IMG/VR virus record: IMGVR_UViG_3300028833_000094
Span: 1 to 64,000 of that record
DNA: 64,000 bases
From: a virus
Lineage: Duplodnaviria; Caudoviricetes
Reading direction: 5' to 3' (one strand)
The notes under the pieces were generated by a model that worked only from the letters and a program-made list of their open reading frames with translations, was not told the origin of the DNA and did not search any database. Each line of letters begins with the position of its first letter. The stretch's first letter is position 1. Shown here piece by piece: positions 774-44,894 of the stretch. Made by a program: the position numbers and the translations under genes.

Positions 774-1187
774 TTATTCTCTTTTAATTGCTTCTTTAAA
801 TCCTTCGATAATAGTATGATTGCTACAGTATCTTGGCCAGCAGTTTTCAAGCCAACTGAGAGTGTCTTCAATTACATCAGCCCTTCCTTTCTCATACTCT
901 GTACGGAGGGCTTCTATCATATCCTTAGTTTGAGAGTTTAATCCCAATTTGAAGAAATGTTTAGCTATCAATAAAACTGGACTTTCTTTACTTTCAACAA
1001 ATTCTTTTGTTTGCACAAATTCTGTTGCTTCTTTCTCCAAGTCCACATCTTCCACTTCAAGAGTGTCGAGAAATGAAAGAATTTCATCACATTCATCTTT
1101 TCTTGAAAAGAGTCTATGTCTCTTGTAAATATCCCTCCTTTTTTCTATCTCCGCTACTAAAGCGGATTTGTCTATGTACTGTGTCAT
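774..1187 (-). CDS. Accessory protein, paralog of 4294..4815
   Basis: Shared AEIE(K/R)...E(I/V)LS(F/Y)(L/I)D(T/S)LE...DLExxA N-terminal module. Confidence 0.75.
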   Translation of the reverse strand: MTQYIDKSALVAEIEKRRDIYKRHRLFSRKDECDEILSFLDTLEVEDVDLEKEATEFVQTKEFVESKESPVLLIAKHFFKLGLNSQTKDMIEALRTEYEKGRADVIEDTLSWLENCWPRYCSNHTIIEGFKEAIKRE

Positions 1188-1189
1188 AA

Positions 1190-2605
1190 CTACTCCTCCG
1201 TTAGTTTCTTTAAATCGTTATAGAGTGACACAATAGCTTCTATATCATCAGGAGCATTTCCTTTTGACACAATACTAAGAGCATTTAATTGTGCTATACT
1301 CGGCTTCCAAGTGTATCTGTCTTTGAGGGATTTGAGCCAATCAAAAAACTTTTTTAGGTAAGACACATCATTCGAAAATGATAAAGCCATTAATTCAAGT
1401 TCCTTAAACCAACTTTCATCCTCTTCACTCCAAGCACAAGCAGGTTTATCATACATTGCTTCCTTTGCTTCTGCTGAAATCATGCGTTGTGGCTTTTTGT
1501 TGGGATTCAGAGTTTTTAGGAAAAACATAAGTTCTTGCATCTTTTTTATATCTACAGCATTATTTACTTTCTCTGCCTGCCTCCACTGTTCTTTAACAAG
1601 TGATTCAAGCTGACAGATACAACTCTCTTCTTGTGGACTCCATTTTACTGTTTTAGCAGGCTTCTGCTCATACAGTTTTTTAACTGCGGTAATGGCACAT
1701 TGATGTGATAAGATACCATCGTCTGTCTGGTAACCATCAACACTTCCAAAAGTCTTTTCAAGGATTCTTTGGGCATGAAAAAGACTATCAATGCCATAAT
1801 CCTCGCCATTATATTCTTCATCATCAATCTCCTTCAACTCTTTTTTCTCAGCATCCCATTCATATCCATCTTCTTTCATCTTTTGGAACAACAGGTCACG
1901 TTGTTCTTTGGTTGCTGGAGTCACTTCATCATGTGTCATAGGAAGTAATCCATTGCTAACTCCAAATCTACCATAAAGATTAATTCCACCATAGCCAAAT
2001 GGGTATTTCCCTTCCTCTAAGTACTCATTATATATAAAAGGCTTGTTGTTGCTTTGTAAAATGTCGCCATCCTTTGCATCTTTTATAGTCCAAAGATGAC
2101 ACATATATTCTTTATCAAATCCAATTGAATAATGATTATTTTGGTTATCAATTACTTCATACCAAGATTCACATACTTCAACGATTTTATAAATACCAAT
2201 ATTGTTTTGAACTATCCAATCACCAATCTTAAATTTCTGTTCAATCTTATCAGTAGGCTTTTGCTTGCTTTGCTTTTCAAGTTCATTTTTAGTATTACTT
2301 ATACCTTTTAAATAAGCATCGTCAACATCTTTTTTGGTAAAAGTTTCACCTTGCTTTTCAAGCCAAGCAATCTGGTTTTCTATATCTTTAACAAGAAAAT
2401 CTTTGGCTGAAGGTGAATCATTTCCATCTTCCACACATTTGCTATATTTTTTTAGTGTCTGTATGATACTTTTCTTCATTCTCTCATCCTCATCCTCGGA
2501 TTCTTTGAGTTCGGGGAAGATGCCTTCCATTAGGCTTTGATGACCATTAAATGCTGCTACTCTCGCCAGTTCAAGAGCCTCTTTGTATTTCTTTTCGTAG
2601 TTCAT
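1190..2605 (-). CDS. Modular accessory protein (FPELKES / WSEEDE family)
   Basis: 471 aa; YKEALE...IFPELKESEDE N-terminus, WSPQEE and WSEEDE modules; paralog of 3256..3905. Confidence 0.8.
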   Translation of the reverse strand: MNYEKKYKEALELARVAAFNGHQSLMEGIFPELKESEDEDERMKKSIIQTLKKYSKCVEDGNDSPSAKDFLVKDIENQIAWLEKQGETFTKKDVDDAYLKGISNTKNELEKQSKQKPTDKIEQKFKIGDWIVQNNIGIYKIVEVCESWYEVIDNQNNHYSIGFDKEYMCHLWTIKDAKDGDILQSNNKPFIYNEYLEEGKYPFGYGGINLYGRFGVSNGLLPMTHDEVTPATKEQRDLLFQKMKEDGYEWDAEKKELKEIDDEEYNGEDYGIDSLFHAQRILEKTFGSVDGYQTDDGILSHQCAITAVKKLYEQKPAKTVKWSPQEESCICQLESLVKEQWRQAEKVNNAVDIKKMQELMFFLKTLNPNKKPQRMISAEAKEAMYDKPACAWSEEDESWFKELELMALSFSNDVSYLKKFFDWLKSLKDRYTWKPSIAQLNALSIVSKGNAPDDIEAIVSLYNDLKKLTEE

Positions 2606-5666: not shown

Positions 5667-5770
5667 TGGGGAAGACAGGAGTTGCACCCATTACACCAGT
5701 AAAATAGTGACAAAGACTACTAAGTGGTTTGCCTACCCGGACTCTCTTGTACTTTGAGACTCCCATCCCC
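5667..5770 (-). ncRNA. tRNA-like RNA (104 nt) with expanded anticodon region
   Basis: Acceptor GGGGATG/CTTCCCC-A (6/7 bp), T-arm-like ATGGG-TGCAACT-CCTGT, D-like TCTC/GAGA; preceded by the same hairpin as tRNA-Arg. Confidence 0.5.
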
Positions 5771-6440: not shown

Positions 6441-7013
6441 TTATGATACTCCTTCATCTTTCATATACTGTACATAGTCATACATGTGAATATCAGAACC
6501 TTCATAGAGCTTGTTATTCTTCTTGGCATAGCTCTTGATGGTAGATGAGAGGAAATTCTTCAGGTTCTTCCAGAGACTGTCTTCCTTGTACCACATGTGC
6601 TTATTATGCTCCATAATAGCTGAACTGTCTCCATAGAGATATGTCCAGTCTGGATTATAGATGCAGCAGACACACTTATTGGTAAGGCTCTTAGGCAGGT
6701 TAACCCACTCTTCAGCAAACTGATAGTAGCCTACATTCTCTCTTTCATACATGAGCCTGAACTTAGAGAATCCAAAGCTCATGCACCAAGAGATAAGACT
6801 CTCCAGACTGTAGAATGCTGGGCCAAAGGATGCTTTTCCATGACAGAGATTCCATTCCATGCCATTGTAGTTCACCCTGATGTCACAGACTTCTACATTG
6901 TAGAGTACTATCTGTTGATTAGCATTGACACTCTGACATCTCCAGAAAGCTGAGAATAGCTCATTAAAGAAGGATGACCTTAGGTAACTGAATGTATTAT
7001 GAGATGCTATCAT
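6441..7013 (-). CDS. PI-PLC-like (PLC-X) phosphodiesterase
   Basis: ASHN, WRCQ...Q, DIR and LCHG motifs of the PI-PLC X domain. Confidence 0.7.
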   Translation of the reverse strand: MIASHNTFSYLRSSFFNELFSAFWRCQSVNANQQIVLYNVEVCDIRVNYNGMEWNLCHGKASFGPAFYSLESLISWCMSFGFSKFRLMYERENVGYYQFAEEWVNLPKSLTNKCVCCIYNPDWTYLYGDSSAIMEHNKHMWYKEDSLWKNLKNFLSSTIKSYAKKNNKLYEGSDIHMYDYVQYMKDEGVS

Positions 7014-7188
7014 TTTAGTACTTCTTTATGAAAGGTTATCTGACCATCTGAAATCATCCATTGACAATCATTAGGCCTATGACCAAGTTCTCTTAGAATA
7101 TCATCTACATTGTACTCATCTTCAAATTGAGTATTGTAGATGTCTACTTCCCCTGTATTGAAATCAAGAATTATGAGCTTTTCCATAC

Positions 7189-33708: not shown

Positions 33709-33854
33709 AATGTTAAATTTTAAAGGGTTTATAATTAAGTGAACTAAAATGCTGTATGAGAGGGTCAGATAAAAAAGAAGGAGAAGGAGAAGAAAGGAAT
33801 AATAATCCCTTCTTGCTCCCGCTCCTTATCTAACCCTTTAAATAACAATAATTG

Positions 33855-33993
33855 TGGGAATCAGGAGAATCGAACTCCTGTATAAGACCTACACAGTCCC
33901 TTCAGCTCAAGAAAACTTTTAAAGAGGCAGGACTGCTGTGACCTGCATTTCATACTTTTCTTGATTCAGTGTCTTATGCCACCGAGGATTCCC
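33855..33993 (-). ncRNA. tRNA-like RNA (139 nt) with a large structured insert replacing the anticodon loop
   Basis: Perfect acceptor GGGAATC/GATTCCC-A, canonical T-arm AGGAG-TTCGATT-CTCCT, ATAAGAC/GTCTTAT helix; 14 nt downstream of tRNA-Arg. Confidence 0.7.
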
Positions 33994-34007
33994 TTATAAA
34001 AATGGAG

Positions 34008-34079
34008 TAGTCCCAATGAGAATCGAACTCATATCTACTCTTTAGGAGAGAGTTATTCTATCCATTGAACTATGAGACC
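34008..34079 (-). tRNA. tRNA-Arg(CCT)
   Basis: GGTCTCA acceptor, TAGTTCAATGGATAGAATA D-arm, ACTCT-CTCCTAA-AGAGT anticodon arm, GTTCGATTC T-loop. Confidence 0.93.
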
Positions 34080-34459
34080 ATTTGCCCCACCGCTGTAGGG
34101 CTTTACTGCAATTTGTGAAATATGAAAAACTAAACCAATCGAAATTTAAATCAAGAAATATATGGCTGAAAATAATAATAAATTGCAGTAAGATGCCTTA
34201 TCTATTTTCACAAATAGAATAGGCTGGATAATTACACATATAAATGAAAAACACTTAAAGTTAGTCCTCAGCCTACTTATCACAAGCAAGCTGATGAATT
34301 TCGATTCAAGAAAACGCCTTAATCTATACTATTCTATACTCATTCAGTAATTTAGGTTTCAGTTGGTATCTATCATTTGTATTAAAGGACTCCAACTTAG
34401 AATCATCTTCATCAAAGTCCATCCATTCAGTCCATTGTTTACCTTTTGGACCCATATAT

Positions 34460-43431: not shown

Positions 43432-44616
43432 TTATCTATTTGAATTTTCTGTTTTTGTTTTTCCTCCTGCCTGTGAAGGTGGGAGGTTTTTAATGGCTTC
43501 CACTACTGTCTCATCCAATAGCTTGGCATATACCTGTTCTGTAATCCTGGTAGAGGAGTGACCACATATTCTGGATACTATCTGCATGGGTACCCCTTCA
43601 TTTAATAATAAGGTAGCTCCTGTATGTCTTGCCCAATGTGTACTCAGGGGTTTGTCTATTCCAGATGATTGTGCTACTACCTTCAGGTACTCATTGTACT
43701 TGACATTGGATATAATGGGTAGTCTGCCATTATATTTCATCAGGATATTCCAGGCAGGGGATAGGATAGGGATGGTAAAGGGTTTATCTGTCTTCAGCCT
43801 GTGTCCAGTATAGACCTTCATATCTTTAATCTCTTGTACAGATTTTATATTAAAGTATCTCAAATCCGAATAGCTTAGACAGGTATAGGTTTGGAAAATA
43901 AACACATCTCTGACTTTCTCCAGACTTTCAGTAGGCATCTTAGAGGTTTTTATCTTATGGAATTCTTCTGGAGTCAGGCATTTCTCAAGACTCTTTATGT
44001 CCCTGCCTTTATCTATACAGATATTCTTATAGGGATTCTTAGTCATGTGACCTTCATTAATAGCATCCAAGATGACAGAATTAAGATGCCTGTGGTAATT
44101 ATGCCATTTAGTATAGAGACACATTCCCTTACTTGCCAGGTAATTGTCAAAAGCTATAAGATTTAATTCATTTACATCCTTGAATCTCTTAATACCTCCC
44201 CATTCTTTAAAGACTTTCAGAAACAAGTTGTACCTGTCTATGCTTCTTGGAGCCTTACCATATTTCCTTATATCAAATCTCTGATGACAATAATCCAGGA
44301 AATTAATATTCTTTCTCTGAATCTTTAACCTGGCTGGTATGGAGAATATATCTATATTCCCCTCATTGGTCATATCAAGGAGTATCTGCCTTACATCAGT
44401 AAGCATCTTATCCAGAGTACTGCTAATCTGAAGGATATCAGGACAATTCAGGATCTTCCCTTTCTTCCACTGGTTTATATACAGCATGATACCAGTGGCA
44501 ATGTACTTTTGCTTATAGTTATAGGTAATTCTCATCTCTACTGCAGACTTTACAGTAAGGGATGCATTCTTTCTTCTGTTGAACACAAAAGTGATTTGAG
44601 GCTGTTTGTTAATCAT
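43432..44616 (-). CDS. int: Tyrosine integrase, Bacteroidota (IntDOT-like) type
   Basis: N-terminal arm-binding pattern (VEMRITY..KQKYIATGI...QW), TCLSYSD, RLKT, HWARH, GHSS, VYA. Confidence 0.92.
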   Translation of the reverse strand: MINKQPQITFVFNRRKNASLTVKSAVEMRITYNYKQKYIATGIMLYINQWKKGKILNCPDILQISSTLDKMLTDVRQILLDMTNEGNIDIFSIPARLKIQRKNINFLDYCHQRFDIRKYGKAPRSIDRYNLFLKVFKEWGGIKRFKDVNELNLIAFDNYLASKGMCLYTKWHNYHRHLNSVILDAINEGHMTKNPYKNICIDKGRDIKSLEKCLTPEEFHKIKTSKMPTESLEKVRDVFIFQTYTCLSYSDLRYFNIKSVQEIKDMKVYTGHRLKTDKPFTIPILSPAWNILMKYNGRLPIISNVKYNEYLKVVAQSSGIDKPLSTHWARHTGATLLLNEGVPMQIVSRICGHSSTRITEQVYAKLLDETVVEAIKNLPPSQAGGKTKTENSNR

Positions 44617-44664
44617 ATTTAAAAAGTAAAATAGGTAGTTAACTTCTCTTTTGAAGAAGCTTAG

Positions 44665-44894
44665 TGTAATAAATAAAAAAGTAGGGTGTAATAAATATGT
44701 AATAAATTAAGGGCTAAAAAATGGATGATAGGCCTGTATTTCCTACCATCCCTTGGGTTCTTAGTACACCCGCAGGGGTTCGAACCCTGGACACCCTGAT
44801 TAAGAGTCAGGTGCTCTACCAACTGAGCTACGGGTGCATGTTGAGGGGGTATGTAATGAATTTTAGGAAGAGCTGTCATAAATATGTAATGAAT
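44665..44894. mobile_element. attP-like site: tRNA-Lys core flanked by six arm-type repeats
   Basis: TGT(A/C)AT(A/G)AAT at 44665, 44687, 44698 and 44852, 44874, 44885. Confidence 0.7.
44765..44837 (-). tRNA. tRNA-Lys(CTT)
   Basis: GCACCCG/CGGGTGT acceptor, TAGCTCAGTTGGTAGAGC, CCTGA-CTCTTAA-TCAGG, GGTTCGAACCC. Confidence 0.96.

Follow-up and report, generated by a model that had tools for sequence, protein, structure and literature searches.

A tRNA-shelled phage RNA with a conserved core of interlocked pseudoknots and a probable triple helix

The locus and its genome setting

The window, i.e. the whole 64,000-nucleotide stretch of phage DNA analysed here, belongs to a 116-kb genome that is assigned to the crAss-like phages on the basis of its major head protein, terminase and integrase families. 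The window harbours an RNA gene on its minus strand (33993-33855), 13-14 nt downstream of tRNA-Arg(CCU), annotated at 34007/8-34079, in agreement with the 14 nt given in an earlier reading made from the letters alone (hereafter the sequence-only reading). The tRNA-Arg gene lies upstream and is probably co-transcribed with the RNA. Covariance model R1 scores the window copy, the sole one in its genome, at 162 bits, and the fold energy of the RNA beats that of 200 of 200 shuffles (z = -3.06). The 3' end consists of a discriminator A followed by CAA, and ACCA is encoded in three homologues (L030, L032 and L106). The locus comprises the following features.

34007..34079, minus strand: tRNA-Arg(CCU), a frequent, not obligatory, neighbour of the RNA across the family
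33852..33993, minus strand: whole RNA gene, a tRNA-like shell around a conserved core
33987..33993, minus strand: acceptor stem, 5' strand, pairing with 33856-33862; G3-C70
33978..33986, minus strand: stemless D-like loop with GG, 9 nt, variable among homologues
33971..33977, minus strand: closing helix P2, 5' strand, pairing with 33882-33888
33967..33969, minus strand: helix A, 5' strand CUG, 3 bp, pairing with CAG at 33936-33938
33956..33964, minus strand: helix B, purine strand, 9 bp, pairing with 33907-33915; positions 4-8 would receive the third strand
33939..33951, minus strand: hypervariable loop, 13 nt here and 13-51 nt in the family, joining helix B to strand A'
33929..33935, minus strand: helix C, 5' strand CAGUCCU, 7 bp, pairing with GGGACUG at 33894-33900; the conserved pseudoknot
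33927..33928, minus strand: helix D, 2 bp, pairing with 33905-33906 and separated from helix C by a UGAA bulge at 33901-33904
33921..33925, minus strand: third strand UCUUU, predicted to form a pyrimidine-motif triplex on helix B; an AAAAG turn follows at 33916-33920
33863..33879, minus strand: T arm, loop UUCGAUU
33761..33837, minus strand: long hairpin downstream of the RNA, -41.8 kcal/mol

The downstream hairpin, possibly a terminator or processing site, has comparable counterparts downstream of the RNA at L005, L006, L007 and L009. Further hairpins occur at 34084-34320 (minus strand) of the window and upstream of L001 and L005-L009: repeated ones with GUGA-type loops precede the RNA in most crAss-like relatives, and a hairpin with an AGCG loop is located 5' of tRNA-Arg in the window and 5' of the RNA itself in L018/L025. 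At 43432-44837 (minus strand) an intact tyrosine integrase adjoins tRNA-Lys(CUU), which suggests a temperate crAss-like phage; used as host markers, the two give no close host match. Judged from the crAss-like carriers, the hosts are probably Bacteroidota.

A conserved core in a variable shell

Homologues were searched for in IMG/VR and JGI metagenomes using exact and degenerate DNA patterns and checked by script, yielding 25 distinct members, all in uncultured phages. The carriers comprise crAss-like phages, temperate phages of 67-72 kb and about 50% GC, and jumbo phages of up to 363 kb. A full tRNA-like shell is present in 21 of the 25 members, a degenerate one in a single jumbo-phage member (L035 = L028) and none in three (L104, L107 = L109 and L108 = L110), all from jumbo phages. 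The core is seen within a tRNA shell, within a degenerate one, or without any shell among tRNAs. In L104 the space from tRNA-Asn to the next tRNA-like gene is taken up exactly by the bare core and its closing helix, and in L108 the bare core comes after tRNA-Leu. An ordinary P2-type closing helix is retained in the shell-less members. The core is near-identical in phages whose nearby helicases are 32% identical, while flanking DNA is unlike even between the closest copies, and neither a protein family common to all carriers (six genomes compared) nor a constant neighbouring gene across loci was found. The RNA is usually located near tRNA genes; the complete 67-kb carrier G005 has no tRNA gene according to ARAGORN. 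The records searched hold one copy each, L007 two, and in the stretch of one relative (L003) the RNA is not seen though tRNA-Arg is present, as expected for an accessory gene.

The core, of about 90 nt, is near-invariant and consists of four covarying helices that form two interlocked pseudoknots, with the strand order A-B-loop-A'-C-D-third strand-B'-D'-C'. In alignment A4 (23 sequences) the 21 core pairs are 99% paired, 13 of them have changed on both sides and every helix covaries, as compared to 39-52% pairing in slid-register controls; the covariation counts take in related sequences, the independent events being few (about 3-4 for the triplex). Helix C is likewise 99% paired, with five of its seven pairs changed on both sides, and helix A occurs as CUC/GAG and CAC/GUG in distant members. 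The fixed unpaired residues gather at one junction: two adenosines (A-A) that follow helix A, a U·G pair and the bulged UGAA. Since two search patterns contained UGAA and the AAAAG turn, the invariance of both is partly circular, being independent only in members found by the 5' or shell patterns. Taken together, this is very probably a real structured RNA with the interlocked-pseudoknot and triplex fold.

The sequence-only reading had described a structured, possibly pseudoknotted insert. The pseudoknot stands, but its register does not, as the suggested CACAG/CUGUG pairing reaches 3-5 of 5 pairs and the conserved one is CAGUCCU/GGGACUG; two further helices and the triple helix had been missed. 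The suggested GCAGG/CCUGC hairpin forms all five pairs in the window copy only and 0-3 of 5 in 18 others, and is not conserved because its 5' strand falls in the hypervariable loop.

The UCUUU segment between helix D and strand B' mirrors the pyrimidine strand of helix B, and we infer a triplex of five U·A-U or C·G-C layers with the U-rich strand in the major groove of helix B. At helix B positions 5, 6 and 7 the purine, its Watson-Crick partner and the third-strand base change together in a parallel register, whereas slid registers give at most one double change. The purine and third strands read AGAAA/UCUUU in the window, AGAGA/UCUCU in L030, AAAGA/UUUCU in L032 and AAGAA/UUCUU in L106. Over seven haplotypes, 32 of 35 triads are U·A-U or C·G-C, which 12 of 5040 permutations equal or better, the exceptions being U·C-G in one subfamily, A·G-C in one member and one broken pair. 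L106 and L108 were found with a pattern leaving the third strand unconstrained. The sequence comparison thus argues strongly for a pyrimidine-motif triple helix. The triplex covariation also accounts for the anticodon-like YUYUAAA loop; a suppressor anticodon (UUA/CUA loop) was rejected, given that the bases in question belong to the third strand and covary with helix B, and that other members read differently.

Most of the shell had been correctly recognised from the letters. The acceptor stem GGGAAUC/GAUUCCC with its following A, the T arm with the UUCGAUU loop, P2 (AUAAGAC/GUCUUAU) and the 9-bp helix B (UCAAGAAAA/UUUUCUUGA) are all present in the window and covary across 19 homologues (in the T arm, its stem), and the D region is short and stemless, with 9 nt in the window copy. 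For acceptor, T stem, P2 and helix B together, 93.5% of cells are paired versus 40-61% in slid controls (19 shelled sequences). RNAalifold recovers helix C and the shell only, the method being unable to draw pseudoknots. The stacked acceptor/T helix is constant at about 12 bp in the 21 shelled members, and this stack, the lack of an anticodon arm and the ACCA encoded in three members support the earlier view of an RNA processed like a tRNA yet non-decoding. Among shelled members, position 3:70 holds G-C, A-U or, in 2 of 21, G·U, and the discriminator is A, G or U; the window copy has G3-C70, and G3·U70 is absent from it as originally stated. Column conservation is 0.74-0.89 in the shell versus 0.91-0.96 in the core: the tRNA-like part is not the conserved unit, the core is.

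Unrelated loops are carried by cores that are 99-100% identical (L006/L009, window/L006), and L019 and L030 have a common loop on cores that are 78% identical; the loops are therefore exchanged as alleles. They change faster than simple drift would give, and a passive linker does not fully account for the rate. The loop may represent a return strand across helix B that is free to vary and is swapped by recombination. Two members with long loops contain a strong hairpin of their own, more in keeping with a tolerant insertion site than with a guide; most loops are unstructured. The loop lengths are spread over all three frames, and a tag peptide encoded by the loop was rejected, as no reading frame is preserved and in-frame stops are frequent.

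In the carriers' own genomes the loops have no significant match; a self-targeting guide was rejected, the 12-nt match at window 8800 being mRNA-sense and equalled in 5 of 60 shuffles. The L023 loop matches 19 nt just past the ATG of a Bacteroidia gene (L102 532-557, plus strand), relatives of which carry PF13715. In 301 Bacteroidia genomes, which may not be hosts, the L023 loop gives 4 matches versus 9 for a control pattern, and compared to shuffles the loops show no excess of start-codon likeness (p = 0.11 and 0.42). This 19-nt match is probably due to chance; a loop mimicking gene starts, of which it is the sole instance, was rejected as unsupported by control pattern and shuffles.

Relation to known RNAs

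Recognition by ARAGORN or Rfam, to which the sequence-only reading had looked, does not occur: neither names the RNA, Rfam E-values of up to 10 included, and at gathering and E-value thresholds Rfam returns only true tRNAs in the window and 14 loci. BLASTN gives T-arm or chance matches only, in INPHARED phages as in plasmids, the 16 matches of a GTDB pattern scan are all false on inspection, and none of 150 Bacteroidia genomes yields a match to the core model. In the literature searched, also with the exact core motifs, the RNA is undescribed; it may still be an unnamed entry among the 10,006 candidates of a viral RNA survey (PMC10690425).

Compared to canonical tRNA (RF00005), the window RNA lacks the D stem and the anticodon stem with its 7-nt loop, whereas the family does have a T arm with TΨC loop on which the acceptor stacks, and its 3' end is compatible with CCA. 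tmRNA (RF00023) resembles the phage RNA in its acceptor stem, stemless D loop, long helix replacing the anticodon arm, T arm and pseudoknot behind this helix, but differs by a fixed G3·U70, a GGAC connector, a tag frame and a size of about 370 nt, as opposed to about 140 nt without these in the window; furthermore, the phage core persists without a tRNA-like domain. Two Bacteroidia tmRNAs compared have GGAC before the T arm and UUUGAC in the D loop, both missing from the phage RNA, and an SmpB gene was not found in the window's phage genome. The tmRNA likeness noted earlier is restricted to the shell; the accompanying remark that there is no room for a tag ORF holds, the loop not being frame-preserving and the L035 member having no such frame. 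Membership of the tmRNA family was rejected, as G3·U70, the GGAC connector with the SmpB-binding D-loop, and a tag frame with resume site and stop all fail. Separately, the 363-kb jumbo phage encodes a permuted tmRNA and SmpB (L110 11499-11814, minus strand; G313:274661-275071) besides its shell-less core.

Theta and minimal HDV-like ribozymes resemble the phage RNA in being small double-pseudoknot RNAs associated with phage tRNAs, and in gut phages they occur beside phage tRNAs (PMC10879173). Membership was rejected because the one C that could be catalytic takes part in helix D and is replaced by G in one subfamily, nested P3/L3 and P1.1 are absent, and the core is not located at a tRNA 3' end. 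In size, position and ends, T4 rnaC (species 1, 139 nt) comes closest to the phage RNA; like rnaD (species 2) it is of unknown function (PMC3014915; PMC12685909). Both come from a phage tRNA operon, match the phage RNA in size and lie downstream of tRNA-Arg, and rnaC has a T arm and acceptor-like ends. However, the full model scores rnaC at 18.6 bits, below T4's real tRNA-Leu and tRNA-Gly and thus a tRNA-level match only, and the core model has no match in the T4 rnaC/rnaD region, i.e. the inner domain is not homologous.

Major-groove U·A-U and C·G-C triples on a pseudoknot helix are known from telomerase RNA and the SAM-II and preQ1-II/III aptamers. These are of the H-type, whereas the phage core has two interlocked pseudoknots and a fold-back third strand, and for the triplex riboswitch families (SAM-II, preQ1-II/III and guanidine-III) there is no Rfam match and no constant downstream gene class. 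In tracrRNA-crRNA of Cas12e (CasX) and Cas12k, the triplex purine strand also directly precedes a variable segment, near a pseudoknot stem, and the likeness of the phage core to the CasX guide RNA may extend to finer strand order. In contrast to these guides, the variable segment of the phage RNA is internal and tethered at both ends, and no array, effector gene, PAM or target was found. In Cas12k and Cas12e guides a central triplex on repeat purines links to the guide duplex (bioRxiv 10.1101/2021.07.06.451292; PMC11685505). The RNA represents a new family within a known, unexplained kind, the phage tRNA-like stable RNAs, and is set apart by its separable, uncatalogued triple-helix core and hypervariable loop.

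Other tRNA-like RNAs were seen alongside. A second tRNA-shaped RNA of a different family is located at window 5667-5770 (minus strand); it is homologous to an RNA of the unrelated phage G005 (L054 about 1656-1765; alignment score 82 versus 33 for the best of 300 shuffles) that lies directly downstream of the present family's member there. Upstream of the latter, at L054 about 1182-1298 (plus strand), is a third tRNA-shelled RNA with a UGCCGCA acceptor and T arm, without an anticodon arm. G005, which is without a canonical tRNA gene, hence holds a cluster of three different tRNA mimics. In the tRNA cluster of a jumbo phage, an RNA of about 255 nt that has no Rfam match and combines a tRNA-like acceptor and T arm with a long structured interior is found directly upstream of the core-bearing RNA (L035 about 6833-7090, minus strand). 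The temperate phage G004 has a long element whose end is formed by a T arm and an acceptor-like stem (L060 about 1500-1760, minus strand), and at L104 1689-1811 (plus strand) a tRNA-like gene of about 123 nt with a long anticodon-region insertion directly follows the shell-less core, in a cluster that also has a tRNA with anticodon UUA.

Proposed function and alternatives

Based on these comparisons, we propose that the working part of this phage non-coding RNA gene would be its rigid domain of about 90 nt. Host RNase P and the CCA-adding enzyme act on tRNA-type ends, and judging from the anatomy, in which the core takes the anticodon arm's place, these enzymes together with 3' trimming could release a stable RNA. 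In jumbo phages, the bare core in tRNA operons, between or after real tRNAs, would be freed by processing of those tRNAs. Function presumably resides in the core, with the shell as a processing and stability device, and we consider it quite probable that the shell is only packaging that excises and stabilises the core. Judging from the distribution, the RNA would act in trans on a host factor, because it moves among unrelated phage families without an accompanying phage protein; its target is probably host-encoded, since no phage protein is common to all carriers. Our tentative preference, for which we would not claim an even chance, is a counter-defence decoy whose core, by its fixed tertiary surface, may engage a host RNA-binding defence protein. 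The lack of a host counterpart of the core, in the 150 Bacteroidia genomes and the GTDB scan, counts against it, because likeness to some RNA of the host might be expected of a decoy.

A different kind of decoy had been put forward in the sequence-only reading, for tRNA-targeting nucleases, or else a ribosome or synthetase ligand. This proposal is weakened by a shell more variable than the core, with varying pair 3:70 and discriminator, and by the three jumbo phages without a shell. The wider idea that the shell itself functions, as tRNA-body decoy, synthetase or ribosome ligand or minimal tmRNA, can draw on the covarying acceptor and T arm of 21 members, the ACCA of three, G3·U70 in two distinct members and the tRNA genes usually nearby. 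We regard it as unlikely, as the shell is degenerate in a fourth jumbo phage, tRNA identity positions vary, the Bacteroidia tmRNA GGAC and UUUGAC are missing, the loop keeps no frame and frequently contains stops, and one jumbo carrier has its own tmRNA and SmpB besides a shell-less core. A decayed pseudo-tRNA or chance structure, to which the adjoining tRNA gene might point, has a negligible probability and is refuted by covariation: the insert is conserved and structured in 23 cores with extensive compensatory change, near-identical even where helicases have diverged, and present in a phage without tRNA genes.

Alternatively, the core could scaffold the variable loop as a guide for a host RNA-guided protein, in the manner of a permuted type V single guide (repeat-spacer-tracr), in agreement with the triplex purine strand that ends in AAG immediately before the variable segment, the many discrete loop alleles on identical cores, the mostly unstructured loops and the L023 match past an ATG. 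This is rather improbable in our estimate: a TnpB/Cas12f-like domain (PF07282) is not over the cut-off in five carrier phages, the window's phage genome has no reverse transcriptase, the loops lack significant matches in their own genomes, the L023 match and start-codon likeness do not exceed the controls, and the loop is tethered at both ends and holds a strong hairpin in two members. We give the same small likelihood to the formulation in which the core mimics the triplex scaffold of a host RNA-guided protein, as guide or decoy scaffold with interchangeable loops delivered by tRNA processing; if true, this would be a mobile phage RNA that redirects or blocks host RNA-guided machinery with no phage protein needed. 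Pseudoknots with major-groove triples also make up the ligand pockets of the SAM-II, preQ1-II/III and guanidine-III riboswitches, and the fixed unpaired residues gathered at one junction would suit an aptamer or sponge that holds a small molecule, for instance a cofactor or a nucleotide immune signal, in a pocket where C, D and B meet. We doubt this, given no riboswitch match in Rfam and neither an expression platform nor a constant downstream gene. A new small self-cleaving ribozyme processing tRNA-operon transcripts appears more doubtful still; the compact double pseudoknot, variable joining strand, superficial HDV-type likeness and position of theta ribozymes next to phage tRNAs (PMC10879173) speak for it, but the sole candidate catalytic C is base-paired and replaced in one subfamily, nested P3/L3 and P1.1 are absent, and the core is inside the shell instead of at a tRNA 3' end.

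In conclusion, the same domain occurs shelled, degenerate-shelled and bare, which makes the tRNA frame a natural, swappable carrier. The core itself is a compact, uncatalogued fold whose triple helix we infer from sequence alone, and a rigid scaffold of about 90 nt that accepts inserts of 13-51 nt could serve for RNA display. That shell and cargo are separable offers a way to test what phage tRNA-like stable RNAs do, T4 rnaC and rnaD likewise. A core common to unrelated phage families without a partner gene is the pattern expected for an RNA acting on a host defence or signalling factor.
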